IMG/VR virus record: IMGVR_UViG_3300045988_127961
Length of the DNA: 64,000 nt
Reading direction: 5' to 3' (one strand)
From: a virus
The translations under genes and the position numbers were made by a program. Below the pieces are notes generated by a model, which was given only the letters and a program-made list of their open reading frames with translations, ran no database searches and was not told where the DNA came from. Shown piece after piece: positions 1-37,850 of the stretch; position 1 is the stretch's first letter; the number at the start of each line of letters is the position of its first letter.

Positions 1-3000
1 CCACTTTAAAGAATACTGCTCGTTGGCAAATTTCTTCAAGTATTTTACATGGTTTTATTGGATCAGTTCAATCTGCGTATTATTATGCTTAGGACTTAAA
101 TGAATCTTTGAATAATATTCGTATTGTTACAGGTCAAAATACTGAATAGATGGCTAAATTTGCTAAATAGGCAAATGCTACAGCCAAGGCTTTAAGTACT
201 ACCACTACAAAATATACTGATGCTGCTTTGATTTATTATCAATAGGGTTTATCTGATGAAGAAGTAAAAGAACGTACTGATATTACAGTAAAAATGGCTA
301 ATGTAGCTCGTGAAAGTGCTGAAACGGTTTCAGATCAAATGACCGCGGTTTGGAATAATTTCTATAATGGAAGTTAGTCATTAGAGCATTATGCCGATGC
401 GATGGTACGTCTAGGTGCTGATACTGCTTCTAGCACTGATGAAATTGCTGGTGGTCTTGAAAAATTCGCAGCTGTTGCTAATACAATTGGTTTAAGTTTT
501 GATAATGCGGCTGCTGCCTTAGCTACTATTACTGCTACTACTCGTCAAAGTGAAGATGTTGTAGGTACTGCTTTAAAAACTATCTTTGCTCGTATTCAAG
601 GTTTAAAGCTTGGGGAAACTCTTGAAGATGGTACTACATTAAATCAATATTCATAGGCTCTCGAAAAAGTTGGAATTAATATTAAAGATTCTAACGGTAA
701 GTTAAAAGATATGGATAATATCATTGAAGAAATGGGTAATAAATGGGGAGCTATTGATAAAGACTAGCAAGTAGCTTTGGCTCAATAGGTTGCTGGTGTT
801 CGTCAATATACTCAATTGATTGCTTTAATGGATAATTTTAATTATTATAAAGAGAATCTTGAAAGAGCATAGAGCGCAGATGGCTCTCTTCAAAAACAAG
901 CAGATATTTATGCTGAGTCTTGGGAAGCTGCCGGAAAAAGAGTTAAAGCAGCAATGGAAACTATATATTCTTCATTATTAAGTGATGAATTTTTTATTGA
1001 TTTGACTGATGGAGTAGGTAGCTTTCTTGAAATTTTAAATGGTGTAATAAAAAGTCTTGGTGGAGTAAAAGGTTTACTTTTAGGAATTACTTCTATTGTT
1101 TTAACTAAAATGCAACCATAGATTACTAAAGGTCTTAGCAATATTAAATATAATATTGATTAGATGACTGGTAAAGAAACACAAAGTGTAGCTAATACTA
1201 AAAAGACTGCGAATTAGATGTTAATAAATTCCGCAGATGTAAATTCTATTTACGGTAAAAATGCTAATAAAGCTTATCAAGAATAGGCAAATCTTTAGAA
1301 TGAGTATATTAGAATAGCTGATAAATTAACAGAAGTACAACAAAAAGAAGCTGCATCGTATTTAGATATTTAGAAAAATTTAATTAAGAATATTGAACTT
1401 AAATCTCAAGAATTAGAAATAAGTGAAAAAGAAGCTTATAAAACTACAAATAGAGCTAAAGGAGATATTTATTCTGGAGATTACACTAAAAATAAACTAA
1501 CTTCTTAGCAAAGATCAGGTATTGATTTATTAATGAATGATTTGGCTTAGTAGAGTAAAGCTTATGCCGAAGTAGAAAGTTACCAATATAATTTAGGAAC
1601 TTAGGGTGAAACAACGGTAAAAGACCTTGAAATATTAAGAAAAAAAATTAATGAATGTAGTATGTCTGCGGAAAAGTTTGGGCTTGCTTATGGAAAAGAA
1701 GGAGCTAAAGCATTTTTAGAATTTGAAAATGCTTTAAAAAATAATAATATTGACAAAGTAGATTAGTCATTAGAAAAATTAAATAATTTAATGACTTAGA
1801 GTGAACCAGTATATAGAGATACTAAAAATATTATTTTAGATTTTGTTACTGCTTTAGGAGCTACCGAAGATCAATATAATGATTTAAGTAAGGTTTTAGA
1901 TAATATTGTTAGTAAAAATCAAAAAGTTGGAGAAACTGAATAGGATTTATCTAATAAACATGTTATTTTAAAGAATTTTACTAAACAAGTAGAAGAAGTA
2001 TTTAAAGAACTATCAGTACAAACAATGTCTGCTTCTCAATCATTTGTTGCTTTTGCTGGAGCTTTATCTTCTGTTGGTATGTTAGTATCATAGATTTAGG
2101 GTATTATAGAAACTTTTAATGATGATACGGTAGACACAAAAGATAAAATTATCAGTATAACAACTTCTTTAGGATTTATGATTCCTATGCTATCTTCTGT
2201 GATTAATAGCTTAAAAGATTCTCGTTTCTTTTTAGGGTCTTTAGGAGCTTAGATGGGAGTAGCTGCTAATGGGGCAGGATTATTAGGTAAGTCATTGGGA
2301 GAGGTTAGTATAGCAGGAACTTAGACGGCCATTTCATTAGGATCAGTTTTAACTGGACTTTCTGGATTATTAGCAGCTATTGTAATAGTAGGAACTGTTA
2401 TTCTTGCCATAAAAGGTGTTATTGATTATGTAAATTAGGCTTCAATTGCTTTAGAAGACGCTACCAAAAACGCAGAAAAAGCTAGTGATGCTTTCAATGA
2501 AGTAAAAACATCTTTTGATTCATTAAAAAATGATATTGAAGATTATTCTTCTATGAAAGATTCACTAGAAACTTTAACAGAAGGCACAAAAGAATGGAAT
2601 GAAGCTTTACAAAAAAATAACGAACAAGTTTCTTAGATGCTTAAAAATTATCCTGAATTAGCTAAATATTTTGATAAAAAATCTAATGGATAGTATTATT
2701 TTACTGATACTGAAGCTGTTGAAAAAATTTATGACAATAAAGTAAAAAATGCTTAGAACGCTGTTAATATGGCAAATGTAGCTAAAGCTAATGCTAACTA
2801 TAATAATGAGAGGATTGCTTCTTTAAGAGATGCTAGTTCTTTTGATACTTATAATAGTTCTGATTTTATGAAAAAAATTGGAAATAGCACAATAGCTGGT
2901 TCTGGTATGGCGGCTATTTTAATGGGGATATTAGGCGGTAGCGCTGCTGGAATAGGAGCTGGTCCAATTGGAGCTTTAGCTGGTGGATTAGCAGGATTAA

Positions 3001-6000
3001 CTGCTGCAATTATAGATAATCAAAAATCGGCAGAAGAAAGTCAACAGGCTATGATTCTTTTACAAGAAGCCTATGAAGAATCTGGCACCTTAGTTTTTTC
3101 TTCTCAAGAAGAATTCACAAAAGCTCTTAAAGATGTAAAAAATGATACTATAGAAGCATTATGGAAAAATGTTGATACTATTTAGGAATAGATTGTAGCT
3201 TTAGATAATAATTCTACGTAGCTAAAGAATTTATTAGAAATGGCTTCTAGTGGATATAATGAAAATAATGAAGATTATAATAAATTAACTGATGAAGAAA
3301 AAGCTCTTGCTGATGCTGTTATTGCTGAAAGAGCTTCAAAAGATATTACTAATTAGACTCAAACATATGTAAATGCTCGTTCTACTGGCACTATGCTATT
3401 ACAAGGAAACGAATAGCAACAAAAATAGTATTTACAAGCAGTTTATGGAGCTGATAGTGAAAATTATCAAATTAAACAAGGTTGGTTCGGAAAATATACC
3501 ATCCAAAAGAGAGATTTGAATGGAACTTGGACTGATTTTAAATCTGGAAAAGCTAATGAACTAGGAGCCGATTATGGTACTTATCTTCTAAATCAATTTA
3601 CATCTGAAGATTCTGATACAATTAATAAATTAACTCAAGTTGGGGATCAAATTAAATCTAAAGATAGTAAAGAAGATTTAAGTGAAAAAATTTTTTAGTT
3701 ACAAAAAGATATTATAGATGGTGTTGGGGTATCTCTAGCTGGTTTTGATGAAGATGTTGTTGAAAATCTTAAAAATAATTTAGGTTAGATCCCTGACGAG
3801 TATAAAAAATAGATAGAAGCAGCTATAGAAGATTATGAAAAGAATTCTTCTGATTATGCAATACAACGATTTGCTGAAAAAGCTGAAGCTGCTAAAGGCA
3901 ATGCAGAAGGTGTTGGAGGGGTTTTAACATCTTTAAATAATGGTGATGATTTATCAACTGAACAAATTGCTTTTTTAGATACACTTAAATAGAAATATAC
4001 TGAATTAAATGATATTAAAGATCAAGGCAGTCATGAATATTTAGCTTTATTGAGAGAAATTTAGGAGCAAGAAGAAACTAATTATTTATAGGCTTTAGAA
4101 GATTCTAGAGATAGTTTATTTAAACAAGCATCTGATTTATCAAAAGAAATAAAAAATAAAGAAAGTGCTTTAAACGATCCAACTCTAAATAAAGATAAAA
4201 AAACTGAATTAGAAATTGAATTACAAGCAAAAACAGATAAATTCAATGAAGTAATGGATAAAATCCAAAACTCCGATTATTCAATTCAAGTTGCTATAGA
4301 TGCTGATTTAAAGTCTGATGTCGATTAGGCTTTTGGATTAGCTGATGAATTTGAAAAATTATAGTCTTATGTGAGTGATGGTTTGACAATTAGCATAGAA
4401 AAAGCATAGTAGATTATTGCTGATGGATATGGAGCAATGCTTACAAATGCTGAAGAGACTGCTGACGGCTAGATTAAATTAAATCAATAGGCAAGAGATT
4501 CTTTTATTGATGATAAACAAGCAGAATTGAATGCTGATAAAGATGCTAAAATTAAATAGTTAGAACTTGAGCGTCAAATGCTTGTTACTAAATAGCAAGC
4601 AACTGAAAAAGCTATTGAAATTTTATAGGGTGGATTAGAAGCAACTACTGCCACTGCTAAAGCAGAAGCTTTAGTTAATGCTGGTTTAGAATCTTAGAAA
4701 GCAGACCAAGCTGTATAGACTGAAGAAATAAAATCAAATGCTGCTGATGCCGGTAATGAAGAAATAGCTTAGGATACTGAAAATTTAGTTAATGATTTAG
4801 GTTTAATGTATTCAGATAATGCTAAAAATCTTGGTAATTCATTTGATGATGCTACAACAAATGCTGAAACATCAGCATCAGCGCAAGTTTCAGCTTGGAA
4901 CTAGGCCCAAAGAGCTGTTGTTGAATACGGTAAAAAAGTAAGAGAAGCCCCAAAAACCACCGGAGATATTTCTTATAATGAAATTAAATTTACGGGGTCT
5001 GGTAAGAAAAGTAAAACAACTGAAAGCACTCCTACTAGCAGTAATTATGCTTATTCTGAATCTACTATTGGAGATACAGTTGATTCAATACTTCGTGAAG
5101 CCGGGAAGCATGAAAGTGGGACAGCATTCTTAGATGAAGCTATTGAAAAGGCTATCGCACAACAATAGTAGAAGCTTGCCGCAGTAAATGCTCAGATTGG
5201 TAGTATTGATGCAGGAATTGCTGCTTTAAAAAGTACTGATGTTTATTTAGATAGATTACAAAAGAATTTAGGAAAAACTTCTAATGAAGTTAAAAAATTA
5301 GCAGAACGTTATCATGAAATAACCCGTGAAATTCAATATCAAGAAAAGCTTTTAGATAAACTATCTAAAACTAAAGATAGAGTTTATGGCAAAGCTAGAA
5401 TTGATAATATCAATTAGGAAATTGAAGCTAATAAAAAATTAGTTGACTTACAAACTAAACTTTATGATTTAGTATTAGCTAATGTTCTTGTAGACTAGCA
5501 AGAAGTTTAGAAACAATTTGGTGGATAGGCAATTTTTAATAAAGAAACATTAGAAATTGATAATTATACTGCTTTATATAATAAAGCTACTACTGATAAA
5601 TAGAGAGAAGCTTTAGAACAATATGAAGAGACTTTAGATAAATTAAAAGAACAAGAGGAAGTTTTAATTGATTTAAAGAATACTATTCAAGATTTACATT
5701 ATGAAAAATTAACTTATGAAGTTGAAGTAAAAATTCAATTAGATGAAAATGATACTAAGAAATTAGAATATTATTTTGATAAATTAAGTGATAATATTTA
5801 TAAAGCAGTTGAAGCTCTTGGATATTTACAAGGTCAATTCGATCCAGTAATTAGTCAATTAGGAACTTATGAAAACTTCTATGGCTAGTTAAACAATGCT
5901 TATTCTAATGGAGAAATTTCTCAAGAAAATTATATCGAAGGTTTACAAGATGTGTATGATAACACATTAGATAATTTAAATGCTTTGTAGGATTTAGACA

Positions 6001-8078
6001 AAGAAATGCTTGAATACTATGGTAATACTATAGATTTAGCAAATGATGAATTATCTAAATATACAGATCATATGGAGCATTTGACTAGTGTATTAGATCA
6101 TTATCGTTCTATTATTACTTTGTTAGGTAAGGATAAAGATTATGATAAAGTTTTATCAGTTTTGAATGGAACTGCTTAGACTAAGAAAAATAATTTTGAT
6201 GCTTCTAAACAATGGTATGAAAGCTTGAAGCATGAGCGCGATGCAGCGGCCGCTGCTTTAGCCAGTTCAACTGATGAGGCTGAACGCGAAGTGCTTCAAA
6301 AGAATTATGATGCTATATTAGCTGCATTTGATGAAGCGGAAGAGGATATGCTTTCTAAAGCTGAAGAATATGGCGAAGCATTAAAAGAAATTCTTACCAC
6401 AAAGATGGAACAAGCTGCGGATGAAATGAATAAGCAATTAAGTACTACCAAAGTGAGTATTAATGGTAATAACTTTAATATTTCTGGTTGGGATGCTTTA
6501 AATGATGCTTTGGATAGAATGTCTTCTTATCAAGATGAATATTTAACAAAAACTAATTAGATTTATGAAATGAATAAATTGCTTAATAATGTTAATTAGG
6601 CTATTGATAAGACAAATAATCAAGCAGCTAAAAATAGATACCAGCAATTTACTAAAGAGATTGAATAGCTAAAAGATAAAGATAAATTAAGTCAATTAGA
6701 ATTAGAAATTGCTTAGGCTAAATATAAAGTGCTTGAAGCACAAATCGCATTAGAAGAAGCTCAAAACGCAAAGTCTACAGTTAGATTGCAACGTGATAAT
6801 GAAGGTAATTTTGGTTATGTGTATACCGCAGACCAAGAGAAAGTAAATGACGCACAATAGGCTTTGGCGGATGCGGAAAATGATTTGTATAATATTCGTC
6901 TTAATGCGACAAACAAATATGGTCAACAAAAACTTCAATATGAGAAAGAGTTGGCTGAAAAGCTTGCAGAACTCGATTAGAAGGCCGCGGAAGATGCCGT
7001 TTACCGCGAGACTACATATCAGCAAGAACGCGCGCTAGTAATTCAACAATATACCGATTTAATTACTACTGCTGGAAATCTTTATGCAAAAGCGCAAGAA
7101 GAGGATAGCAGAGTCGTTCAAGACGCTTGGGTAAATTCTTTTGATATTATCAAAGATAATAGTAATAATTGGAAAGATACTATTACTGAAAACACTAATA
7201 TTATCAATGATACATTTAAAGAATGGCAAGACAGTATGGATGAAATTAGTAAAATTGTTGGTGATGATTTAAAAGATACTCAATAGAAAGTTAAAGATGT
7301 TACTGATGAAAGTAATAAACTTTATCAAGAAGTATCTAATAGAGTTATTCCTGCTCTTGAAAGCGAGTTAAGTTCTGTTCGTAGTGCTACTGAAGCTTGG
7401 GCACAACATCGTCAGCAATTACTTGATACTATTAGAGCTTATGAAGAGCTTTTAAACGCCATTCAAGCGACATTGCGTGCTTAGAGTGGATTCGGTAGCG
7501 ATAGTGGTGGAGATACTGACTGGGCGGCCATGATGGGCACTGTGGCTTATGGCTCCGCGCAATATAATCAATATAAAAGAAACCGCGAAGAAAAAATTGC
7601 TAATGGTGGTAGTATTAATGAAGATACTACGGCTCGAGTTGATGCATATTATAAATTGCTAAGTGAAGGAAAAATCTCTGGTAAACTTCCTAATGGTAAA
7701 TATAGTTTTACTTAGCTTACTGATTAGGAGTGGAGAGATTTAGTCGGATTTAGAAGTGGTGGTTACACTGGCACTTGGAATGATGACGGAAAATTAGCAT
7801 TCTTACATTAGAAAGAATTAGTTCTTAATGCTGATGACACGGAAAATATGTTAGCCTCTATCCAATTAGTTAGATAGATCGCAAAACAATTAGATTTCAA
7901 TAGTCAACAAATCTCCACTCTTTCTTCTTCTGGATTTACTGTTAGTTCTCAAGATGGAACATTAGAATAGAATGTTAAAATTGAAGCTAGTTTCCCGAAC
8001 GCGACTGATAGATACGAAATTCAAGAAGCATTTAATACATTAGTTAATGTAGCTTCTCAGTATGCCAATAGAAAATAA
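1..8078 (+). CDS. Tail tape measure protein, 5'-partial (more than 2690 codons in window). Read in frame 0 with dozens of in-frame TAG codons taken as sense. Stop is TAA at 8076-8078.
   Basis: Continuous frame-0 reading from nt 3 to 8075 contains only TAG as apparent stops (e.g. 90-92, 147-149, 168-170, 243-245, 375-377, 654-656). All ORF-track fragments (402, 2769, 3516, 6225, 7530) share frame 0. The TP901/TMP-like motif MVRLGADTASSTDEIAGGLEKFAAVANTIGLSFDNAAAALATITATTRQSEDVVGTALKTIFARIQG is present. There are Gly-rich hydrophobic segments (e.g. 2200-2420) and long coiled-coil Q/E/K-rich stretches. A rho-independent terminator follows. Confidence 0.85.
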
Positions 8079-8084
8079 AATTAA

Positions 8085-8193: not shown

Positions 8194-11100
8194 TTGGCTG
8201 ATAACGCACTAAATATTCAAGAAAGTTTATGTCAAGCAATGAGTATTATTGCTAATTCAAGTGTTGACAAAGTTAAATTTGATAGTACCATTGAATGTAC
8301 TATTATTGATGCGACTGATAAACTTATTGGTAAGTATAAGGTCAAAAATGAATCTTATGCGGAATTTTATGCTTATTCCCAAATAACCACTTATAACAAA
8401 GGTGATAAAGTGTATGTATAGATTCCGAAAGGAGATTATAATAGCACTAAATTTATTGTCGGCAAAAAGACAGATAAAAATGAAGATAAACCATATAATT
8501 TTGTTAATCCTTTTAATACTTTTATTGATTTAACTGGCAATTTTTTTATTGCCAAAGATAATAATAAAGAGATTTGGAGTATCTTAGCTAATGGCAATGA
8601 AGAAGAAATTGAGATTACTCCAAATGGTGGAATTACCTTTACTGATGAGCAATAGGGATTTACGCGGTTGGGGTTGCGTGCCGATTTCCGCGCCTGGCTT
8701 GAAACACTCGGTGTAATAAGTGGTAATTATGGATTAAAAATAAATATATATGGTATTAAAGATGATACTGCGGATAATATTAAAAAAATAGAAGCAAGTA
8801 TCAAAAATAATGGAGAAACCCCTTTAATCGCATCCATTGATTTAGATACTAATGACATGTATGGCAATCCCTATAATTTTGAAGGATATTATTCTCAAGA
8901 AATTGTTATTGATACTAGCGCAGTAGCTAAAATATATAATATAAAAATATTTTTATATCAAAAAGATAATTTTAAAGATAGTAATAATAATTTAATTAGT
9001 TATGCCAATGATTTCAATATGTCAATTCCGCCTAATAATATCTTTGTAAAAGATATATATATGGGATTAGGTATTTCCGCAGATGAAATAGAAAATGAAT
9101 ATGTAAGACTGTATTCATTAGATGGAAGTACTTATGTAATTGATGATAAAGGTTAGATTGATTCTAAAACTATTAAATTGAAATGGGTTCATTTTGATGA
9201 AGATGGCAATAGAACTCAAATAACTGAACATAAAAAAGAAGATACATTTGAAGTTCGCTGGTATGCGTATGAATTTGGAGCACCTTCCGCGGACGAATAT
9301 TCTGGTGTCTATTGGACTGCGATTGAAGATAATAAAAATAATTTTTATTATTAGCTAAAACCGCGCTCTAATAAAAATCAAGAATAGGTTAAAGTAATTA
9401 TTTTATATAATGGAAAAGTTTATAGAAGTAATATAATTACTTTTAATAATGAAAAACAAGTTCCTAATGATGCGACTATTGATAGTTTAAATGCTTTGTC
9501 TATTCACTGTGAAGATTAGACTAATGGTAATTATTTAATTTATAATTAGGCTAATTATTTGATGAATAGATCAGATGGAAAGATTAGTCGTAAATTAACT
9601 TTGCATTTTGATTCTAAGACTTATGCTATTAATAATGGTATAATTGGTAAAAATTAGGATGGAGAAAGTAAATTAGTTGAAGCTTAGAGAGTAATTTGGC
9701 AAATTCCTATTAAAAATACTATGCTTAATTTTGGTATTAAAGATGATGGAACTGATGCTACTTATAAAGAAATTATTATTGATTTAACTAATGAAAACGT
9801 CAATGTTTCTCCTGGAGAATTTTCTTTAAATTATACTATTAATACTTTTTATAGTAGTAATAAATCTAATAATACCGTAATTGCTAAAGTAGAAAAAGAT
9901 GGTATTGTTTATACCTCCATTAAAGATTTCACTTTTGGATAGGTAGGAACTAATGGCACTGATTGTACTTTGGTAATTGATATGATAGCTCACGAGAATT
10001 TAAATAATAAAGTATTTACTGCTATAAAAAGTGGAGTAAGAGATAATTATACTTTTAGAGCTTAGTTATATGATAATGAAGGTAAAGAAATTACTAATTT
10101 TGAAAAATGTAATTGGACTTGGAGTTTTATGGCTGGATCAACGGTTAATAATGTTGATTTATAGAATACTAATAATTAGAATTGTGTGTTAAGAGTTAAT
10201 ACTACAAACTCTATAATGAGTAATTTAATTATTTTGTAGGTAAAATTATCTGGTTGGGGAGACTATGATTTAACTGCTTACTATCCAGTTCCTATTACAA
10301 CTTTAGATAATACTTATATGAATGGTCCAACAGAGGTAATTTATTTAAGTAATGGTGAACCTACATTTTCTAAAGAGCCTTATAAATTATTTGTAAATGG
10401 CGAAGTAGATGAAATTGCGACTTGGAGTATTTATTCTAGTAATTCTAATGATGCTTTTATCGGTAAGATTAATTATAATGAAGATAAAAAAGAGTATAGA
10501 TTAAGTCCTATGAGTTTTTATGTTGATGGAGTAAGCGTTTATGGAGTCCAAGGAAAATAGGGAAATAAGATAGTTTGGACGTAGCCTATTTTAGTATTAT
10601 AGAATAAATATCCATCTGCTATGGTAAATAAATGGGATGGAAAATTTTATACTGATGTAGAAAATAATTTTTTAGGTGTAGCTTAGATTGCTGCAGGTAA
10701 AAAAGATAAAAATGCTAATACTTTTACCGGAGTATTAATAGGTGATTTTGGAACAAAACAAAATGCAGATTCAAGTATTTCTTATAATACTGGGGTTTAT
10801 GGATATAATAATGGATATCAAGTTTATGCTTTAAAAGATGACGGAACTGCTACTTTTGGTAAATCTAGCACAGGATAGATTATAATTAATGGAACTTCAA
10901 GTATTATAGAATCTAAAGATTTTGAATATACTTATAATGAGTCTGGAGCTAGTGTAATAACAGGGTTAAGTTTAGATTTATTAAATGGTAAAATTTATGC
11001 TTAGTCTGGTACTTTTAGTGATAATATTAAAATTAATTATAATGGTTCTACGGGATAGCCTTGGTATATTTAGTATGGAGCGGGAGAAAAATCATTAAGT

Positions 11101-11511
11101 GATATATTAAATGCAATTGGTAGCGCTGCTGCTGAAGCTAAAAGTGCCGCTAGTGCGGCGGGGGCTGCTGCTACTAAAGCTCAATAGGCAGCAGATGCAG
11201 CCGCGGATGTAGCGGAAACAGCTGCTTCAATTTCTATAGTAGCTAGCAATGCTGCGTCTAATGCATAGAGTGCGGTAGATGATTTAAGTTATTTATCAAA
11301 AATTTTGAATTATAAAAATAGTAGTAATATTTATTTAGGTCCTTCTGTTGAATATTCTTCTACTCCCAATTTAACTATTTTTAATGGCACAATTGGCTTA
11401 ATGGGAGGAACTGGTAATTATCTTAATGTGACTGATAGGTCTATCTATTTACAAGGTCCCGTTGTAATAAATGGTTCATTGACTCTCAATGGAAAAGAAA
11501 TAACAGGTTAA
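8194..11511 (+). CDS. Large tail structural protein (1105 aa, TTG start). The position after the TMP suggests a distal-tail or baseplate component. TAG-recoded.
   Basis: RBS AAAGGAGGG 6 nt upstream of TTG. Frame-1 ORF fragments 8194, 8668, 9721, 10318 and 11305 are joined only by TAG codons. Ala/Gln-rich coiled segment near the C-terminus. TAA stop at 11509. Confidence 0.55.
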
Positions 11512-11710: not shown

Positions 11711-11711
11711 A

Positions 11712-28000: not shown

Positions 28001-29754
28001 CAGAAAGAAAATCTTATTATAGAGATAATGGACATTTTTAGTTGGTAGCTATTCCAAAAGATTAGGTTAATAAAATAACAAAATCTGATATTAAAAATAA
28101 TTAGATTTATTATTTAGATACAATAAATGGAGACAATAATAATCATAGTATAATAACTGATTATAATTTATTAATTGATATTTATAATAATTATAGGGGT
28201 CTTAATACTAATAAGCCAGAAATATCTGGTGTTATGTATATAAAAAATAATAATTAGATTGATGAATCTATTATCTAGAATGAGTTATAGGATAAATACC
28301 CTGATTTAATAATTTTTGTAGAAAATGTTAAACAAGAATGTTCTGCCAAGTTTATTTTAGAAAAAGAAGATATTGATGGAGTATTAATTTAGGAGGTTCT
28401 AAAAACTTAGAAATTACCCTTATCTAGCAGTAAATTCTTTGATGATCCAACAAATTCTTCTAGCGAAACTTATATTTCTTTTGGTAGCTTACAAGAAAAA
28501 ATGCCAACTTATGATTTTAAAGGTTGGGAAGATGATACGGGAGAATTAGTAATTGCTGTTGGAAAAAATGTAAATGAAGAAGACGTTGTTTTAAAAAGCG
28601 ATTGGAATTCTTTGTCTTTACAATCTAATAAAATGGATTATATTTTTAAAGCGAGATTTGAGCGCAAATCTTATACGATCACTTTCGTTAATGGTGACCG
28701 CGTTATTAATGATTCAACTGTAAAGAAAGTATTTAATTATGGTGAAAGAATTACTGTTCCAGAAGAATTTTATTATTTTAATAATACAGAAGTATCTGAT
28801 TTACCAGAAGGCGAAGACTCATTAGAATGGACTTGGAGATAGACGGGATGGGCGGATAAAGATGGAGTTAAAATTGATTTAACTAAACAATTAGCCTATG
28901 CTGACCGCGAATTCTACGCTGTTGGAGAGCCGATTAGTGTTTATGATAATATTTTAACTAATGATTCTACTCATAAATATTATGATATTATAAATTCTGA
29001 TGGAGAGTTATCATTTGTAATGACTGACTTAGCTAAGAATTTAAAAGGTAAAGTTACTTTACCTACAACTTATAACGGTTAGCCGATTACAAGAATTAAA
29101 TATAGCCAAGTTAATCCATCAGCAGCAGTTGGTATTCAAGTAAATCCTAATATCACTGCGATATTTTTTGCTCCAAAAGATAGCAATAAAATTTCTGTAA
29201 TAGATGATTATGCTTTTATTTTAGATAGTGGGTTAGAATATTTCCAATTTAGTGATTGTTTAAAGAAAATTGGTACTAAAGCATTTTATCAATGTCCTTT
29301 AAGTCGTAATAACATAATTCCTTATTCTTCTTCTACTGAAGGTTTGACTTTTGGAGCTCAAGCATTTTATCAAAGTAAGATGGGTTCTTATTCTCCTTAT
29401 AATTTAATTATAGAGGGATGCAAAGACGGTATTCTTAATTTTGATATAAATGCATTTTCTGGTCAGACAATTTTAAATATGTCTGGTAATTAGTTTAAAG
29501 GTTATACTGGCGCTATTCAAGTATAGATTGGTACTAATAAACACCCAATTAAACAAATTACAGCAGATAGCTCTGGCAATATTTTTACTCCTCGTCAAAC
29601 TGGTATGCCTACAGTGGCTAATGGATACACAGGTCGTTTTAGATATTATTATGTTGCTAGTTATGGTGAAAGTATTAAAAATACTTTACACAATATTTAT
29701 GAAGCAATGATATCTAATAGAGCGAATTTTGAAGAAGAGCCTATTGTAAAGTGA
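22009..29754 (+). CDS. Giant tail fibre or host-recognition protein (2581 aa) with C-terminal BspA-type leucine-rich repeats. TAG-recoded.
   Basis: ATG after AAAGGAG. Frame-1 fragments 22474, 22858, 23137, 24055, 24886, 26272 and 28501 are all joined only by TAG. N-terminus RFRPVQGPEEKIKAYPQTDGYFYVATDTG is of the fibre N-terminal type. The C-terminal region (about 28950-29500) has repeats such as ISVIDDYAF...FSDCLKKIGTKAFYQCPL...LTFGAQAFYQS typical of BspA LRRs. TGA stop at 29752. Confidence 0.55.
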
Positions 29755-30060: not shown

Positions 30061-31743
30061 TTGATAGTTAAAAATGATAGTGTTATCGAACAAGCTAAAT
30101 GGGAAGAGCTTCAAAAGAAAATCAATACTTTAGCTAAAGATAACTCAATAAAAAACGTTAATGGAAAAATCGTTGAAATAAAATCTATTGAAGACTATTA
30201 TAGTAATATCACTGGTATCGTTCAAATGAAGAAATTAGATCCATCTGTTCTTCGTATACCTTTAGATGAACCTATTATAAATATAAACGCTGATACTCGT
30301 CAAATTGAATTAACTAAAGAATTTGGAAAAACACAATTACTTACTGTTGAAAATGATCATTTGGCAGAAACAATTTATTTTCAAATTGATAGATATTTTG
30401 ATTTACAAGATTTAGCGGCTGATGATATTAAAATTTATATTCAGTATTATTTAAACGATCAAGTTCAAGGTTATTCTGAAGCTATTTGTCCTGATATCGG
30501 GACTGCTGGAAAACTGATTTTTGGATGGCAAATTAGTGATGAAGTGACTAGTGAATCTGGTACTTTATAGTTTTCTATTATTTTCTTTAAAAAGAATCCA
30601 AAAGATAATAATAATTTAATGTATGTATTTAATACATTACCAGCGCAAATGGTTATTAATAAAACTTTAGATATTGACGAAGATTTAATTACCGCTTAGC
30701 CTGTTGATTATTTAACTGGTTATCTAGAAAGCCTAATTGATTCAAAGAAATCTGCTGGTTTTGGTGTTCCTGATAATGTTGCTTTCTTGACAAGTATTTT
30801 AAATAATAAATCTGTTTATTTAACAGGTGATAAATTATATGCTTTAGCCTATAATGATACTTTAAATAATCCAGATAATACTACAATTGAATATAAATGG
30901 ATTTGTAATTATAGAGGAACTAATACTGAATTAAAAAGTGGTATTGGTTATGAATATAAAAAAATTATTGAAGATAATAGTATTTTTAGTGGAGATATGG
31001 TTTATAATGAAAAATTAACTTATTTCACTAAAAATGGAGATTCTTATATTAATAGCAGTAGTGATATTAATCTTGAAAACTACACTGCTAAGAAAAATGA
31101 TCTCTATTTAAAAGTTCAATATTGTGAAGTTGATGGATGCGGAAGCTATAGTGTCACCGCGTTTGGCGCTACTGCTAATCAAGTAAGCAAAGAAGTTAAA
31201 TGGACTGGATTGGCTATTTCTGTTGAAGGAATTAGTGAAAATTTTAGAATTGTTCTTGATCCTTCTCCTGATAATGGATGCTATTATGGTTCTTCTAACA
31301 CTATTACTGCTGTTGGATAGAATGATGAAGGTGTTTAGTGTACTTATCTTTGGAAAAAGAATGGCTCTGATTTTAGTACTGAAAAAACTGTAACCTTAAC
31401 TAAAGAAGATAATTATACTTTGTCAGTTCATGGCTATAAAAATAAAGATAGTATAGATTATCCTACAATTAGTTTCACTAATTATTTTGATCCAACTAAT
31501 TTAGTTCCTGTCATTGATAAAAAAGTTAAAATTGAGAATGGAAAATATATTGTTACAGTTACTAACACTAGTGAATTAGGCAATGGTATTTATGAATATC
31601 AATGGAAAAATGCGTAGGGTGCTACTTTAAAGACAACTTCTGATAATTCAACAGAAGTAGATGAAAATATTACTCAAGGAGCTGTAATTATCCAGAAGGG
31701 TGAAAGAAAATCGCAACCAGGAACCTTTAAGATTGAGGGGTAA
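30061..31743 (+). CDS. Structural protein (560 aa, TTG start). Paralog of the next gene.
   Basis: Frame-1 fragments 30061, 30787 and 31420 are joined by TAG. Shares the motifs ETIYFQIDRYFDLQDL and NTLPAQ with 31749..32369. Confidence 0.5.
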
Positions 31744-31748
31744 GATAA

Positions 31749-32369
31749 ATGATAACTAATCCAACTGATTATTATAGTGTTTTACATCAAATACAAGATG
31801 AAAATTTTCCAGTTAAATATCCTGCTCTTCCAGCCCCAGAAGATGAGAAGTTGGTTTAGATAGATTTAAACTCAAGAATTATTAGTAATGAAAATAGTTA
31901 TATTACAGTTGAAGGTGATCATGCTGCTGAAATTATTTATTTTGAAATAAATAGATATTTTGATACTATGGATTTAACCAATATGATGTGTATTATTTAG
32001 TATATTAATGCTGATAATGAAAAACGCATTTATCCAGTCCCATATTATGATACTTTAACTCATAAAGATAAAATTATTTTTCCTTGGGTTTTAAATTATA
32101 GTGCTACTAAAAAATCTGGCACTTTAAATTATATGATAACTTTTTATAAAATAGAAAAAGATTCTAATAATTTATTATATAATTTAAACACATTACCAGC
32201 AAGTCTTTAGGTTTATTCTAAACTTAATTTAGATTCTATTGTAAAAGAAGAAGATTATTATATAATTGATGATAGCCAAGTAGTACAACAAATTTGGGAG
32301 CGTTTAGCACGTTTAGAAGGATTTGTTGGTGGTAATGGGTTGGATGTTTATTGGATTGTTCTCGAATAA
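31749..32369 (+). CDS. Hypothetical protein (206 aa). Short paralog of the 30061 gene.
   Basis: The segments EIIYFEINRYFDTMDL and LNTLPASLQ match the N-terminal half of the preceding gene. Three in-frame TAGs. Confidence 0.45.
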
Positions 32370-32377
32370 ATAAACCA

Positions 32378-32413
32378 AATGGTATAGAATTATTAATTTA
32401 ATTCTATACCATT
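32378..32413 (+). terminator. Hairpin (14-bp stem), possible weak terminator
   Basis: AATGGTATAGAATT / AATTCTATACCATT. Only a short T/A-rich tail follows. Confidence 0.35.
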
Positions 32414-32442
32414 AATTTATAGAAAGGAGTTATTGAAGATCG

Positions 32443-33471
32443 ATGGCTCTATTTAAAATTTTAAAAGGTGATTCAGATAGATTAGTCACCTATGATGCGA
32501 AAACGGTTAATGGGAAAATACCTTTTCCCGCCTTAGATTCTGGAAAAACTTTATTCACCCCAGTAGAAGATGCTACTCCTATTAAAGAAGGATACGCTTA
32601 TTTTACAGAAGATACTCATAAATTTTATATTGATACTGTAGATAAAAGATTAAATTTATATACCGATCATGCAGATTATGCTACTTATGATGAAAATGGT
32701 CGTAATTTAGCCGAATTGTCAGAAGTATCTTATGAAAATATTGATGATAATGGAAGTAAAATTGGTACGATAAATATTAATGGAATTGAGTATAATGTTA
32801 CTTGTCCTGCGGATGTAGCAAGTAAACCTGTAAATAAATATGTGTTTACCGCGAAAGCAAATTAGAATACATTTACTATTCCTTTTGATTTTGATGATAG
32901 TAGTGCTTTAACTTTATATTATAATGGTATCATGCTAAAAGAAAATGATCATTACACTGTTAAGGGAAAGGTTATTACTTTAAATGGGTGGACTAGTGAA
33001 GCTGATGATTATCTTACTGTAATGGGTATTGAGGGTGCGGCTGCGATTAATGTTGATGAAAAAGTGGCTTAGATTCAAGAAGCAGTAGATAACGCCGAAG
33101 TGACTATTAATAATAAAGTTGCTGATGCTATTAAATCTATTGATAATAAATTGGCGACTGTACCTGATGATGTTACACAAGCAGTTTATAAAAATAAATC
33201 CAATATAATGACTGCTGATGGTAGAATTACGATGGATAGTAGTTATGTTCCTACGGCTGATATGGAATTAGCTACTAAAAAATATGTTGATAATGCTACT
33301 CCTCCTACAGTTGGAACTACTACTGATTATTCTATTTATATTGGATCTACACAACCTGCTTCTGGGACCGCTCCTTTAGTATGGATAGATACAACAGTTA
33401 AAACTGGCACTTTTAAATATAGAACTTCTACCACAGGTACTTGGACCCCTGTTCCCGTGGCTTGGATTTAA
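32443..33471 (+). CDS. Tail fibre protein (342 aa)
   Basis: RBS AAAGGAG. N-terminus MALFKILKGDSDRL...GYAYFTEDTHKFYIDT. Two TAGs. TAA stop. Confidence 0.55.
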
Positions 33472-33505: not shown

Positions 33506-33916
33506 ATGGATCAAAATTTGATTAATCAATTATTCCAAGTATGTTTGATTCCTATGCTTGGCGCTTTAACTACTTTTATAGTTATTTGGATTAAAGCAAA
33601 AAGTGCGGAATTACAAAAGAAAACTAATAATGATATTTTAAATAAATATGTGCAAATGGCTACTGACACAATTACTAACTGTGTTATTGCCACTAATCAA
33701 ACTTATGTAAATTCTCTTAAAGAACAAGGTAAGTTTGATGAAGCTGCTCAAAAAGAAGCATTTTAGAGAACTTATCAAGCAGTATTGCTCATTTTAAGTG
33801 ATGACGCTAAAGAGTATTTGAATAATGCTTTTGGTGATTTAAATAAATATTTACAAGAGAAGATTGAGTCTACAGTAAATAATTATCGTACTCCAAGTAA
33901 TGATTTAAAGCAATAA
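33506..33916 (+). CDS. Holin, LL-H-like (136 aa). Single N-terminal transmembrane segment. One in-frame TAG.
   Basis: RBS AAAGGAG. TM helix LFQVCLIPMLGALTTFIVIWIKA followed by a charged or amphipathic tail. Located at the end of the structural module. Confidence 0.5.
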
Positions 33917-33962: not shown

Positions 33963-34685
33963 TCTAAATGGATTTTTCCATCGTCGATTAATTTCTTCAT
34001 AGCCTTTTTTAGGAAAGTATAAAACTTCACCATTTTTAAAAGTTAAATTATCTTTATTCATTATTTTAATTTGATTTAAATTAATAATTAAACTTGGCGG
34101 AATAAAGACAAAATCTGGATGATAAACTAAAGTTCCTATATAATTTTCAAAAGAAGTTTTTAAAGTTTTACTATTTAGAATTTCGTTCTCTAAATGACAA
34201 CACAAATTTCGTTTTTGAATATCAGCATATAATACTTTACCCAAATCAATTTTTACTTCTCCGTTAGGAGTGTCTAAATATTTATATTCACGTCTTTTTT
34301 CTTCTCTAACTTCATGTAAAATAGAAAAAATTTTTTCTTTATTAACAGGTTTTTTGACGAAGTTAAAGGCCTTTACTTCATAAGAAGCTACTCCATAATT
34401 TATTTGAGAGGAAACAAAAATTATTTTTCCAATATACCCATTTGTTTTTAAAGATGAGCTATTTCAATACCATCCATTTTTTTGAATGTAATTCCTAAAA
34501 AGATTGCATCATAATCAATATTGGAGTTAATTAATTTTTCAGGATCAGTAAATTTATATACATATCCTGGCAAATTAAATTCTTTAAAATACTGATTTAT
34601 TATTTCTTCTAATGAGTCATTTTGCTAATCGCTATTGTCGCAAACACCTACAATAAAAATTTTAATCACCTTCATTTTGTTTATT
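33960..34685 (-). pseudogene. LytTR-family (AgrA/ComE-like) response regulator, disrupted. The receiver-like N-terminus (ATG 34685) ends at TAA after IAHL in an A5 tract. The LytTR DNA-binding domain continues in the -1 frame.
   Basis: N-frame reads MKVIKIFIVGVCDNSD(Q)QNDSLEEIINQYFKEFNLPGYVYKFTDPEKLINSNIDYDAIFLGITFKKMDGIEIAHL then TAA. The other frame reads ...FVKKPVNKEKIFSILHEVREEKRREYKYLDTPNGEVKIDLGKVLYADIQKRNLCCHLENEILNSKTLKTSFENYIGTLVYHPDFVFIPPSLIINLNQIKIM..., which is a LytTR pattern. The canonical phospho-acceptor Asp is replaced (IFLGI instead of FLDI). Confidence 0.5.
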
Positions 34686-34918: not shown

Positions 34919-35365
34919 ATGAATACTTATGGTTATCCATAGCAGTAGTATCCAATAGGTAATAATAGACCTATTTATGGAACAACTGCTACGCCTGTGA
35001 TTCAAAACAATACTACATAGCGAATTAGACCCGTTGCTTCTTTAGAAGAAGTTCGAGCTATGAATATAGATTTTGATGGTTCAGTTTTTTATTTTCCTGA
35101 CTATGCTAATCGTAGAATTTATACAAAACAAATAAATATGGATGGAACAGCTTCTATTAATATGTATGAATTAAAGGAAATCCCAAATTCTTCTTAGCCT
35201 AATAATGATTATATAACACGAGAAGAATTTAATACTACTTTAACTTCTATTAAAGAAGTATTTGCATAGATCATGGGATCTAATAACGCGGTTGCGCCGT
35301 CTTAGGAATCGGGTTAGCCAGCTCAATAGCAACCAGTAGAGAGCAAACCGCAGTTTAATTTTTAA
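34919..35365 (+). CDS. Gln-rich hypothetical protein (148 aa) with 8 in-frame TAGs
   Basis: RBS GGAGG. TAG codons flank CAG codons (CCA TAG CAG TAG TAT at 34937-34951) and occur in a PAQQQPV-type tail. Confidence 0.5.
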
Positions 35366-35377: not shown

Positions 35378-35626
35378 ATGACACAATCAATGAATCCAAT
35401 GCAAATTATTGCTATGATTAAAAACGGTCAAAATCCATAGCAATTAGTTTTATCTATGCTTGAAAATCAAATGGGCGGAACGCCAATGGGCAATAATTTA
35501 TTACAAATGGCACGGAACGGTCAATCCGATGACATTGAAAAATTTGCTCGTAATTTGTTTGAATCAAGAGGGTTAAATTTCGATAAAGAATTTAATAGTT
35601 TTAAGTCCCAAATGGGGTTTAAATAA
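35378..35626 (+). CDS. Small hypothetical protein (82 aa), one TAG
   Basis: RBS AAGGAG. TAA stop. Confidence 0.45.
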
Positions 35627-35652
35627 ATAAAATTATAGAAAGAGGTTTTGTT

Positions 35653-36534
35653 ATGTTTAATTACAATTATCCAATGAGCACGCCTAATTATTCATTATCT
35701 GATATTGCTGCGGCTTCTGGAAATGGCTATCGTAATAATGATGGCGGAATGTGGGGAGACGGAGCATGGTGGATTATTATCCTGTTCTTATTCTGCTTCA
35801 ATGGTTGGGGCGGTAATGGCTGGGGTAATAATGGTGCTAATGGTTCTGGTTTCCAAGGCACTACAACTCGAGAAGAAATCGGCTATGGTTTTAACATGAG
35901 CGATCTTAAATCTGGGGTTAATGGTTTAGCTTCTAGCCTTTGTAATGGTTTTAGTGGAGTAAACACTAATCTTTTAAGTGGTTTTGCTAATCTTGCTGAA
36001 ACTAATAATGCTAATACTCGCACTTTACAGAGTGATATCTGCAATATGGGTATGAATAATATGCAGAATACCTTTAGTATTACTCAGGCTATTAATGCTG
36101 ATACTGTAGCAAGTATGCAGAATACTAATAATTTAACTCAGCAATTAAGTAATATGGCAGCTACTAATGCTCAATGCTGCTGCGAAAATAAACAGTTAAT
36201 TCAATCTAGTTTTGCTGATCTTAATTATAATCTTGCTAGTATTGCTTGCCAGAATCGTCAGGCTACCGTTGATGGTGTTCGCGATATTATTGACAACAAT
36301 AATGCTAATATGCGTTCTATTCTTGACTTCCTTGTTCAAGATAAAATTGAGACTCTTACCAGTGAAAATAGCACTCTTAAAAATTAGATTTCTCAAAATC
36401 TTCAAAATGCTTATCTTATTGATCAGTTGTCTCCAAAAGCAACTCCTGCTTATATCGTTGCTAATCCTTATACTGGTGTTAGCTATACCAGTTATGGATG
36501 CGGTTATGGTTCAGGATGCGGTTGTAATTCCTGA
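35653..36534 (+). CDS. Asn/Gly-rich low-complexity membrane protein with Cys clusters (293 aa)
   Basis: RBS AAAGAGG. Hydrophobic segment WWIIILFLFCF. The region GWGGNGWGNNGANGSG, a CCC motif and a C-terminal YGCGYGSGCGCNS. One TAG. Confidence 0.5.
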
Positions 36535-36555
36535 TTGAAGAAAGAAGGTTAAATT

Positions 36556-36978
36556 ATGGAAATAACGGCTAATGCTTTACAATCAGTTGCTACTGGTTCT
36601 AATGTAGTATTCACTAACACAGCTGTTGCTGGAAACTGTTCCATAATGTATCGCGAGGGTAGCGGTTTAGTTACCCTCCGCGGTCTTACGAACGGTCAAC
36701 GCAGAGCTCGCTTCCGCATTTCATTTGGAGGTAATATAGGACTTCCAACTACTGGAACTGCGGGTGCTATTTCTTTGGCTATAGCTATTAATGGAGAGCC
36801 AGTTACTACTTCTACAATGATTTCCACTCCTACGGCTACTGGATAGTTTAATAATGTTTCACGTGCTTTATTCCTCGATGTGTTAGGCGGTTGTTGCACT
36901 CAAATCAGTATTGAAAACACGAGTTCATAGGCTATTGATGTTGAAAACGCCAGCTTAATTATCGAGAGAGTGGCATAA
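36556..36978 (+). CDS. BclA C-terminal-domain-like (C1q/TNF-like jelly-roll) protein (140 aa)
   Basis: The pattern ANALQSVATGSNVVFTNTAVAGNCSIMYREGSGLVTLRGL...RFRISFGGNIG...ISLAIAINGEPVTTSTMISTP...ASLIIERVA resembles exosporium BclA C-terminal domains. Two TAGs. Confidence 0.45.
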
Positions 36979-36991
36979 GGAGGTTTTTTAA

Positions 36992-37537
36992 ATGTGTGAT
37001 AAATTCCAAGAAATTAAAAAACAATTATTAACTCAAGTAGAAGGCCAAATGGCTCATTTAGAATGTGTTGATACAAAGGAAATGGGCGAAGTAATAGATA
37101 TGATAAAAGACCTTGAAGAGGCTATTTATTATTGCACTATTACTGAAGCTATGAATGATTTACCTGAAACCACACATTATTATACTGAAAAATATAAATC
37201 TCCTCATAAAAAAAGAATCTATAAACCTATGACATATGACTATGATTGGGAAGATTATGATTATGATGAGCACGAATATGAGATGCCAACAAGTGGGAAA
37301 TCTCATGAAACCCATGATAGCAGAGAAGGCCGTAGTGGCGTCCACAGAAAGATGTATATAGAAGCCAAAGAACTTCATAAAGATAAGAGTGTTTAGATAA
37401 AAGAGTTAGACAAGTATCTTCAAGAATTAAGTTCTGATATAGTAGAAATGATTGAAGATGCTTCTAATGATGAACGTTCTTATATGGAGAAGAAAATCTA
37501 GGCTTTAGCATCTAAAATTGGATCTATGAATGGTTAA
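36992..37537 (+). CDS. Hypothetical protein (181 aa). Acidic, with a Tyr/Asp-rich middle. Two TAGs.
   Basis: RBS AAGGAGG. Frame-2 ORF 36992 extends through TAGs at 37394 and 37498 to TAA at 37535. Confidence 0.45.
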
Positions 37538-37850
37538 TATTAATAATAGGAATTGGAGGATACTATTAGTATCTTCCAATCATCCTATGTTAATGCGACC
37601 TTCTGGAATATATACTTTAGGTTCTTGCGATGATCCTACTTCAACAATTTATATTAATGAAAATATTAGTAATAAAAAATTAAAAAAAGTATTAGCACAT
37701 GAATTAACTCATGCTGCTATTTTTAGCTATGATATTTCATTAAAACCAGAAGAAGAAGAATTGATTGCGGATTTAGTGGGAACTTATGGCGAAGAAATTA
37801 TAAATAATACTAATCTTTTATTTAAATAGATAAAAAAAATAAGGGAATGA
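37530..37850 (+). CDS. ImmA/IrrE-family zinc metallopeptidase-like protein (106 aa). HEXXH motif HELTH. The terminal TAG is read through to TGA at 37848.
   Basis: TIYINENISNKKLKKVLAHELTHAAIF matches the ImmA/IrrE core. The ORF ends with TAG at 37827, then IKKIRE and TGA inside the terminator. Confidence 0.5.

Follow-up and report, generated by a model that had tools for sequence, protein, structure and literature searches.

The virus behind the window (the whole stretch of 64,000 nucleotides analysed here) has very probably reassigned UAG to glutamine, as in genetic code 15, judging from codon comparisons with its relatives. Every one of the 18 late genes uses TAG as a sense codon, as do 13 of the 25 genes of the replication module. 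The window is in all likelihood 64 kb of a ~160-195 kb virulent-type human-gut siphovirus with 30% G+C, distantly similar to SPbeta and EF1-like phages, and its genome is a further case of a recoding already known in gut phages.

Once only TAA and TGA count as stops, the plus strand between positions 3 and 37850 reads as 18 back-to-back ORFs with short intergenic gaps, the longest two having 2691 and 2581 codons. Among their 11,763 codons are 192 in-frame TAG, and neither TAA nor TGA occurs in frame, which agrees with the earlier note, where the frame had been described as maintained across TAG throughout the large plus-strand genes. TAA+TGA occur at 0.10 per codon in the off frames, and therefore the chance of such open late frames is ~1e-545. 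The note had also placed TAA and TGA only at gene ends, followed by starts with an RBS, and this was confirmed, as all 43 genes of the window end in TAA (34) or TGA (9), none ends in TAG, and a Shine-Dalgarno-like motif lies ahead of 13 of the 17 late-gene starts. In a comparison of translation tables, ORFs of 100 aa or more covered 45% of the plus strand under table 11, 95% with TAG as sense and 46% with TGA as sense. Table 11 splits the late genes into 210 fragments, but the expectation that standard annotation would leave the region mostly non-coding was overstated, since table 11 keeps 45-68% in ORF fragments and public gene calls on an identical ENA contig already read through TAG. The late genes are the following.

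3..8078, plus strand: tail tape measure protein, 2691 codons, 78 in-frame TAG against 118 CAA+CAG; 5′ end outside the window
8194..11511, plus strand: large tail protein with a weak PHROG minor-tail match, 24 TAG against 15 CAA
11712..14603, plus strand: tail or baseplate-region protein (phrog_30026), 14 TAG
14581..16887, plus strand: tail protein (phrog_32343, phrog_1887), 9 TAG
17248-19560, 19648-20229 and 20244-21890, plus strand: three putative fibre-like structural genes with 10, 2 and 2 TAG
22009..29754, plus strand: giant late protein of 2581 aa, 27 TAG
30226..33471, plus strand: three late structural genes of 505, 206 and 342 aa with 5, 3 and 2 TAG
33506..33916, plus strand: holin (phrog_13712, E=6.7e-38, residues 5-133), 1 TAG inside the matched region
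34919..35365, plus strand: 148-aa late protein, TAG in 8 of 14 Gln-type codons (57%); holds the CCA TAG CAG TAG site
35378..37850, plus strand: last five genes, of 82, 293, 140, 181 and 106 aa, 1-2 TAG each; end of the late module

The product names proposed earlier were confirmed for the tail proteins, the holin and the tape measure, which matches PHROG tape-measure families (E=8e-62) and whose homologs contain Pfam PF10145. For the fibres, family searches with the three putative fibre-like genes gave no match. The tail protein at 14581..16887 is distant kin of proteins of Phass-1 and MT835469. For the giant late gene, the public call on the identical ENA contig has the same length of 2581 aa and therefore reads through TAG. 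Among large genes, TAG bias is highest in the tail gene at 8194..11511 (TAG share 62%), and the holin is weakly recoded, with TAG as 1 of 12 Gln-type codons.

The 13 minus-strand genes with in-frame TAG lie within 37885 to 64000; genes with TAG are listed here together with a TAG-free polymerase.

37885..38835, minus strand: first two minus-strand genes, 142 and 147 aa, 3 TAG each
40537..43412, minus strand: NrdG (anaerobic ribonucleotide reductase activase) and NrdD (reductase), 1 TAG each, inside PF13353 in NrdG and at the Q[YF]GG motif in NrdD
43992..47982, minus strand: DNA polymerase III alpha (YorL-like), no TAG, 49 Gln codons
52472..54220, minus strand: RecJ-like DHH exonuclease, 6 TAG, four of them within the DHH and RecJ_OB Pfam domains
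56181..58257, minus strand: DnaB-type helicase with 2 TAG in its N-terminal domain, and an upstream 184-aa gene with 2 TAG
60929..62878, minus strand: 220-aa gene with 2 TAG and GIY-YIG endonuclease with 4 TAG; relatives have CAA or CAG at some of these positions

Our data support a recoding that is genome-wide, yet concentrated in late genes. In the late module 36% of the Gln-type codons are TAG, versus 10% for the replication module (odds ratio 5.1, P=1e-16); 18/18 late and 13/25 early-module genes contain it. The same pattern had been proposed from the first 37,850 positions alone, and the minus-strand genes extend it beyond that range. DNA polymerase III alpha is the contrast case, an early gene free of TAG. 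As a separate observation, that gene contains a prfB-like +1 frameshift site (CUU UGA C), which may be more novel. In two early genes TAG stands 7-14 codons ahead of the stop, and in NrdG the Pfam domain runs beyond it.

Glutamine is the residue best matched to these positions. Opposite the 12 TAGs of the tape-measure N-terminus, the DNA of 44 relatives has CAA 108 and CAG 26 times, codons for Glu 66 and Lys 60 times, and TAG itself 53 times; CAA+CAG, with 134 of the 439 non-TAG codons, are the commonest class, and at site 81 the relatives have only CAA (23), CAG (10) or TAG (10). In a substitution-profile likelihood Gln was best, followed by Lys (-48 lnL) and Glu (-160 lnL), with Ser behind by more than 350. 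In a 94.6%-identical contig, 90 of the 97 aligned window TAGs are also TAG, and of the 17 codon changes in which TAG is one of the two codons, 13 have CAA/CAG as the other. The TAG of NrdD falls opposite Gln in two of three solved NrdD structures. These comparisons show that, in evolution between genomes, TAG behaves as a synonym of CAA/CAG, and they uphold the earlier assignment to code 15. That assignment had been argued from TAG inside glutamine runs; both quoted sites exist exactly as given (5160-5174, CAACAATAGTAGAAG; 34937-34948, CCATAGCAGTAG), but the statistics behind the argument are weak, with a CAA/CAG neighbour at 9.4% of TAGs versus 5.5% of other codons (P=0.04).

No tRNA and no Rfam match was found in the 64-kb window. 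The source genome is known here from the window only, and the tRNA(CUA) evidence comes from contigs of close relatives (94-99% identical to the window where compared, including contigs of 98.7% and 94.6% identity): each of the 14 scanned has a single tRNA(CUA), which always takes the same place within an array of more than 20 tRNAs, upstream of tRNA-Tyr and, where the locus extends that far, after tRNA-Val. In the closest relative scanned, the array is upstream of the replication genes on the same strand. The note had suggested looking for a tRNA(CUA), a release factor or a Gln-tRNA synthetase elsewhere in the genome. Neither the window, nor the public Pfam gene tables for its flanks, nor the ORFs of 170 aa or more over ~55 kb of a relative contained a gene for a release factor, GlnRS, GluRS, any other aminoacyl-tRNA synthetase or an amidotransferase.

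The form of this tRNA bears on the main competing explanation, that TAG is sense but is read as Ser, Tyr or Leu by the long-arm tRNA(CUA), as Glu if a non-discriminating GluRS charges the tRNA and amidation fails, or ambiguously. In the closest relatives the tRNA has 90 nt, and with a variable region of ~21 nt it resembles the class II tRNAs for Ser, Leu and Tyr; such a region is atypical for tRNA-Gln, and glutamine is therefore only the presumed charge of the 90-nt form. Its position next to tRNA-Tyr, and Glu and Lys ranking second and third opposite TAG, point in the same direction. SerRS and LeuRS do not read the anticodon, and many Bacillota lack GlnRS. However, the likelihoods given above separate Gln from Lys, Glu and Ser, Tyr and Ser make up only 10 and 19 of the 439 codons, one invariant site admits CAA, CAG and TAG only, and the exchanges in the 94.6% relative are mostly with CAA/CAG. 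Further relatives have an ordinary 73-75-nt tRNA(CUA) in the same slot, and the tRNA(CUA)s compared start with U1, apart from one Phass-1 copy with A1; in all of them position 73 is G and the 1:72 pair is weak or mismatched. The acceptor stem of the close relatives' tRNA(CUA) covaries with that of the Phass-1 suppressor. We consider another residue quite improbable.

Far less probable is that TAG is a true stop, in a decayed prophage or pseudogenes, through an assembly artefact, or in deliberately truncated products. The 210 pieces of table 11 would fit this, and the GenBank record of Phass-1 is annotated in just such fragments, but decay would also add TAA, TGA and frameshifts, and none is present in the late codons. 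TAG positions are kept in relatives across independent assemblies from many samples, and Pfam or PHROG family matches continue across TAGs in the tape measure, holin, NrdG, Gmk, RecJ and DnaB. The phage is moreover widespread in human-gut metagenome assemblies, one protein being indexed in 411 blocks of the collection, and the open-frame statistics refute this reading. Pyrrolysine is the least probable of all, since it has in its favor only the automatic ARAGORN label 'tRNA-Pyl' on tRNAs with a normal T-loop (TTCAAAT), a normal D-arm and a standard or long variable region instead of the compact architecture of tRNA-Pyl, TAG sites align with Gln and not with Lys-like positions, and no pyl genes were found in the scanned regions of the window, flanks and relative.

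With UAG read as glutamine, a mechanism can be proposed in which the phage tRNA(CUA) would be charged with glutamine by host enzymes and would then, at UAG codons, beat release factor 1 of the host; its U1, weak 1:72 pair and G73 resemble tRNA-Gln identity elements. On this model, tail and lysis proteins would be completed only after enough suppressor tRNA accumulates, and in an uninfected or early-infected standard-code cell late mRNAs would yield truncated products. The essential DnaB and RecJ also need suppression, which is evidence against a strict late-only switch and suggests that the tRNA is probably expressed early; an effect that scales with TAG dose is more likely than an on/off late switch.

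It is also conceivable, though unlikely, that the recoding is part of a wider translational control in the lineage. This is suggested by the unusual class-II-like tRNA(CUA) in a slot where other relatives have the ordinary form, and by the need of the essential DNA polymerase III alpha for a prfB-type, RF2-sensitive frameshift. If true, the output of the polymerase and of the late proteins would report the host termination state, via RF2 and RF1 respectively. As another possibility, the long-arm tRNA might decode UAG ambiguously and not as pure Gln.

Suppression of UAG as such is familiar from E. coli, where the amber suppressors supE (tRNA-Gln CUA) and supF (tRNA-Tyr CUA) compete with RF1. 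There suppression is partial and UAG is still a stop, whereas here none of 43 genes ends in UAG, and a third of the Gln codons in late genes are UAG. Closer parallels are the code-15 gut phages, described among crAss-like phages, Lak megaphages and 'gemstone' clades (Borges et al., 10.1101/2021.08.26.457843; Peters et al., PMC9523058), with Gln recoding validated by metaproteomics for crAss-like phages (PMC9523058). The window lineage shares with them in-frame TAG opposite Gln, low G+C, a tRNA(CUA) carried here by the close relatives, recoding that is concentrated in genes for structure and lysis and varies among replication genes, and mixed-code relatives. Differences are that it is a lineage of siphoviruses, a tape measure that exceeds 2700 aa, SPbeta-type Yom/Yor genes, the absence of a release factor from the parts scanned, and a holin that is not preferentially recoded, unlike the lysis-gene bias reported for crAss-like phages. 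The Agate clade (154 +/- 27 kb; 10.1101/2021.08.26.457843), to which genomes are assigned by their place in a large-terminase phylogeny with 95% bootstrap or more, is compatible in size with the 159-194 kb found here; the terminase gene lies outside the window.

Phass-1, of the proposed Phassvirus group (OQ749652, 'Caudoviricetes code 15 clade'), reads TAG as Gln in ~28% of ORFs (PMC10607447). It is likewise a human-gut siphovirus of more than 130 kb with a tape measure of ~3150 aa, NrdD/NrdG, dUTPase and many tRNAs, and of its 91-nt long-arm and 75-nt tRNA(CUA) the long form aligns with the relatives' 90-nt one. Genomes of the window lineage are larger (159-194 kb), and a megablast of the window against INPHARED phages gave no match. 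Similarity and synteny at the level of the Phassvirus genus are lacking, with no nucleotide-level match to Phass-1 and 27% aa identity in the sole matching tail protein. The suppressor tRNAs adjoin nrdD in Phass-1, a position empty here, the tRNA being in a distant array.

The best cultured matches are SPbeta/phi3T (Spbetavirus) and Enterococcus EF1-like phages, with a similar size, full-length similarity in PolIII alpha (YorL, 38% aa) and, for the SPbeta type, the YorF, YomU, YomV, YomW, YonB and YonD Pfam families in the window or relatives, but the kinship is distant. No stop-codon recoding is known in the SPbeta group. For EF1 none is reported (PMC10607447). The window lineage, being distantly SPbeta-like, probably infects Firmicutes; related contigs bear conflicting MAG labels (Mollicutes, Bacilli, Clostridia, Bacteroidales), a sign that phage contigs were probably mis-binned.

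This genome and many human-gut metagenome relatives need translation table 15 for annotation, without which the late genes are broken up and most of the tail and lysis module seems non-coding, as in GenBank's Phass-1 record. Another large siphovirus lineage joins the amber-recoded gut phages, and the current picture of phage recoding is unchanged. One tape-measure family spans TAG-recoded, TGA-recoded and unrecoded relatives.

When only TAA and TGA were taken as stops, the plus strand of the window (G+C content 30%) was tiled by long ORFs lying end to end:

3-8078, plus strand, ORF of 2691 codons
8176-11511, plus strand, ORF
11643-14603, plus strand, ORF
14563-16887, plus strand, ORF
17236-19560, plus strand, ORF
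22006-29754, plus strand, ORF of 2582 codons
as far as 37850, plus strand, smaller ORFs in series

With refined starts, the plus strand holds 18 genes and 11,763 codons, in which TAG occurs in frame 192 times and neither TAA nor TGA ever does. TAA and TGA together occur at 0.10 per codon in the two off frames, and the chance of the 18 late genes' frames being open is ~1e-545. The share of the plus strand covered by ORFs of 100 aa or more is 45% with table 11 (the standard bacterial code), 95% if TAG is read as sense, and 46% if TGA is, and table 11 would split the 18 late genes into 210 pieces. Shine-Dalgarno-like motifs lie upstream of 13 of 17 starts, and the two TAG sites quoted in the earlier note are both exact in the sequence. 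The open frames, the ORF coverage, the exact sites, and the Shine-Dalgarno-like motifs together confirm that the frame is kept across in-frame TAG codons, as had been claimed. Recoding of TGA in this genome was rejected because table 4, with TGA as sense, brought no gain in ORF coverage; pyrrolysine at TAG and pseudogenisation of the window genes were also considered and rejected. An alternative-frame ORF at 7663-8139 (plus strand, 159 codons, 10 TAG) overlaps the 3′ end of the tape measure gene and is probably spurious.

The sign of the GC skew flips near 37.8 kb, separating the plus-strand module (1-37850) from the minus-strand module (37885-64000). In the former, 3-8078 encodes a tail tape measure protein (PHROG E=8e-62, with PF10145 in homologs), 14581-16887 and 8194-11511 match tail-protein PHROGs, and 33506-33916 encodes a holin (phrog_13712, E=7e-38). 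These late gene names were borne out, but the remaining late genes had no informative family match, so the "fibres" named with them are still putative. The minus-strand module encodes a dUTPase, NrdG, NrdD, a guanylate-kinase-like protein, PolIII alpha (a YorL-like DNA polymerase gene, 43992-47982, minus strand), an HNH endonuclease, an SF1 helicase, a tail-lysozyme-family protein, RecJ, a primase-like protein, DnaB, AAA_24, YorF, GIY-YIG, and a DNA ligase. The tail-lysozyme-family protein (PF18013; 51579-52418, minus strand) has an N-terminal signal-anchor and no TAG, and it sits in the replication module; no endolysin was recognised beside the holin in the TAG-rich late module. A response-regulator/LytTR-like gene (33960-34675, minus strand) lies antisense within the late module, in the space that separates the holin from the late genes following it. 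Its LytTR match of 19.5 bits is under the Pfam cut-off of 22.6 bits, and it spans two overlapping frames (34448-34675 and 33960-34463), which could reflect a frameshift, a pseudogene, or two separate genes.

TAG accounts for 192 of the 531 Gln-type codons of the late module (36%), with at least one in every gene, versus 28 of 279 (10%) in the minus-strand module, spread over 13 of its 25 genes (odds ratio 5.1, P=1e-16). The description of the reassignment as genome-wide and concentrated in late genes is accurate on these counts. The highest TAG bias was found in 8194-11511 (62%) and 34919-35365 (57%), and the holin is weakly recoded (1 of 12). No TAG is present in PolIII alpha (49 Gln codons), the primase-like protein, AAA_24, YorF, or the dUTPase. 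Pfam domains run across the early-gene TAGs of NrdG (PF13353, to its last position), Gmk, RecJ (DHH and OB), and DnaB-N, and relatives either keep the early-gene TAGs or carry CAA/CAG in their place; judged from these alignments, the early-gene TAGs are not artefacts. The terminators of 43 genes are TAA in 34 and TGA in 9.

Close relatives are abundant in human-gut assemblies, where one 125-aa protein is indexed in 411 collection blocks, and include IMG/VR contigs of 159-196 kb, one with 98.7% and one with 94.6% identity over the compared stretches. IMG/VR contig _131075 matches the window at 100% over 631 nt and at 98.7% across a longer overlap, and window 28937-49455 is 100% identical to the ENA contig ERZ28569356 BRIT16-1_SAMN02333939_METAG-scaffold_31 (194,080 bp). 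Public gene calls on this contig and on relatives (L140, the identical stretch, and L003-L006) translate through TAG; one product on the identical contig, for example, is 2581 aa long. Code-15 products are thus present in the large protein collection, and protein-level counts of Q opposite TAG can be circular.

For this reason, a protein-level tally of the tape-measure N-terminus against 120 database homologs, in which Q made up 36.5% of aligned positions over a background of 6.8%, was put aside as possibly circular and replaced by a codon tally at the DNA level. Across 44 loci with tape-measure N-terminus homologs, mostly phage contigs binned into MAGs, the codons opposite 12 TAGs of the window were CAA (108), CAG (26), TAG (53), Glu codons (66), Lys codons (60), Thr (33), Ala (33), Ser (19), and Tyr (10). 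Site 81 (IYYQ-x-GLSD) showed solely CAA (23), CAG (10), and TAG (10). With substitution profiles learned from these same tape-measure alignments, the likelihood of TAG identity was at its maximum for Gln, with Lys at -48 lnL, Glu at -160, and Ser at -356. The 94.6%-identical contig keeps TAG at 90 of 97 aligned window TAGs, and 13 of the 17 codon changes with TAG on either side are to or from CAA/CAG. When NrdD is aligned with three solved NrdD structures, its sole TAG matches the Q of the Q[YF]GG motif in two of them; for the NrdG TAG, a PDB search returned no match covering the position. The codon tally, the likelihood, the exchange between TAG and CAA/CAG, and the NrdD motif all support reading TAG as Gln. 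The glutamine runs from which this had been proposed are a real but weak clue, as the excess of Gln neighbours is only slight (9.4% at TAG versus 5.5% at other codons, P=0.04). The TAG finding is real, and the interpretation given in the earlier note is correct.

The tRNA(CUA) that the earlier note proposed to look for, a putative amber suppressor, is absent from the window but present in the relatives. Scans of the window for tRNA and Rfam families, at gathering and E<=1 thresholds, returned no tRNA and nothing relevant. In the 98.7%-identical IMG/VR contig, searched in consecutive steps of ~10 kb, the first tRNA cluster (Thr, Ser, Ser, Gly, Cys) lacks a suppressor, and a tRNA(CUA) lies in a larger array ~15 kb further on. 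All 14 of the 14 close-relative contigs scanned carry one tRNA(CUA) at the larger array, upstream of tRNA-Tyr(GUA) and, where the locus extends far enough, after tRNA-Val(UAC). In the closest relatives, it is 90 nt long and has G73, U1 facing U72, CUCUAAA as its anticodon loop, and ~21 nt of variable region. It aligns with the 91-nt suppressor of Phass-1, a code-15 human-gut siphovirus (GenBank OQ749652), and the two acceptor stems differ by compensatory changes. In other relatives, the slot is occupied by a conventional tRNA(CUA) of 73-75 nt. The weak 1:72 pair, together with U1 and G73, resembles identity elements of tRNA-Gln, and no tRNA-Gln(UUG) was seen in the closest relative's array.

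Genes for a release factor or a Gln-tRNA synthetase, also proposed there as search targets, were not found in the parts scanned. Neither Pfam searches of 18 ORFs of at least 170 aa over ~55 kb of the 98.7%-identical relative, a scan reaching to within ~11 kb of one end of the contig and ~23 kb of the other (~34 kb in total), nor the public Pfam tables for the window plus flanking sequence revealed a release factor, aminoacyl-tRNA synthetase, or amidotransferase. From established knowledge of translation, host enzymes would charge the phage tRNA(CUA) with Gln, and the charged tRNA would compete with RF1 at UAG.

The relatives' tRNA region has several further features. The tRNA(CUA) of the closest relatives (L127 945-1034, equal to L186 9677-9766) and one of those in Phass-1 (L008 12442-12532) have a class-II-like variable region of ~17-21 nt. 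Beside the CUA/Tyr pair, two relatives (L187 11046-11125 and L194 11041-11120) also encode an 80-nt tRNA(UCA), which ARAGORN labels tRNA-SeC and which is possibly an opal suppressor. On contig _131075, tRNA-Lys(UUU) (L119 9742-9881) carries a 68-nt insert within the anticodon loop, as in L120, L121, and L112. This insert has a mini-tRNA-like fold that includes a T-arm and an acceptor stem of 7 bp, and it carries a 3′ GCCA. The interrupted gene is missed by ARAGORN and scores 59.9 bits with the Rfam tRNA model; other relatives have an uninterrupted 75-nt gene, and two have a ~485-nt insert at the same point. A RAGATH-33 RNA (RF03102; L119 8537-8665, 126.8 bits, above the gathering score) lies inside the array in the place of the relatives' tRNA-Leu(UAA), and a literature search on RAGATH-33 returned nothing pertinent. 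A gene cluster beside the array (L107 10935-20212, L119 11187-18067, L090 16619-17878; ~104-131 kb of a relative) encodes an RNA ligase, an AAA_33 polynucleotide-kinase-like protein, an RlaP nucleotidyltransferase, three metallophosphatases, a DUF2828/DUF7788 protein, PhoH-PIN, an Eco57I-type methylase, and an 832-aa protein with major-vault-protein shoulder and repeat domains, and looks like an RNA-repair and defence-evasion set.

Recoding of TAG to Gln, as seen here, is of a kind already well described in gut phages. It has been reported in late genes, together with phage suppressor tRNAs, for crAss-like and Lak phages and six further gut-phage clades, in which replication genes are variably recoded and close relatives are of mixed code (Borges et al., 10.1101/2021.08.26.457843). 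For crAss-like phages, it is reported to have been validated by metaproteomics (PMC9523058). NCBI taxonomy includes a "Caudoviricetes code 15 clade". Phass-1, a 136-kb siphovirus in which TAG is read as Gln, encodes NrdD/NrdG, a tape measure of 3149 aa, and two to three copies of tRNA-Sup-CTA (Babkin et al., PMC10607447). Although the window phage works in the same way, it is not a Phassvirus, as a sole tail protein matches (27% aa identity) and the suppressor tRNA, as seen in its relatives, lies at a different genomic place. None of 50,697 phage records (INPHARED) matched at the nucleotide level when stretches of 8 kb and 12 kb from the window were compared with them by megablast. The nearest cultured relatives are SPbeta/phi3T and Enterococcus EF1-like phages, with 38% aa identity in PolIII alpha, and Yom/Yon/Yor Pfam families were found in the window or in relatives. 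Within the tape-measure family, ~19 relatives have no in-frame stop, ~21 have TAG, and 4 have in-frame TGA, so all three coding states occur in one protein family, echoing the published plasticity of phage codes. The TGA-bearing N-termini (MAG contigs L163, L170, L171, L173) contain two to three in-frame TGA and no TAG.

Outside the range of the TAG finding, the most interesting item is a prfB-like +1 frameshift site (CUU UGA C) in PolIII alpha (47982-47922, minus strand), 19 codons into the gene. A leader of 19 codons, MRSYFGIHNHTMYSNLRLL, begins with the ATG at 47982 and contains the PHP HxH motif, as phi3T YorL does; this leader stops at CTT TGA C (47928-47922), and the gene continues in the +1 frame for its other 1310 codons. 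In the public gene call, a later ATG is used and the motif is lost. No Shine-Dalgarno-like stimulator was seen upstream of the site, and a literature search on CUU-UGA frameshifting in phages found nothing pertinent. The identical heptamer is present in four other close-relative assemblies, found via their identical upstream HNH protein, and the heptamer occurs in 11 of 58 metagenome relatives, in three divergence groups; the remaining 47 encode ...RLLDCINRP in a single frame. Among the 11, the leader varies synonymously and the heptamer is invariant except for the base following TGA (C in 10, T in 1); both reading frames show selection. The HNH endonuclease ORF (47979-48644, minus strand) lies directly upstream, its TGA stop overlapping the polymerase ATG (ATGA), and tblastn found an HNH homolog upstream in 3 of the 11 frameshift-bearing relatives versus none of the 47 single-frame ones, suggesting from sequence comparison that the frameshift version may be a mobile-element-linked allele.
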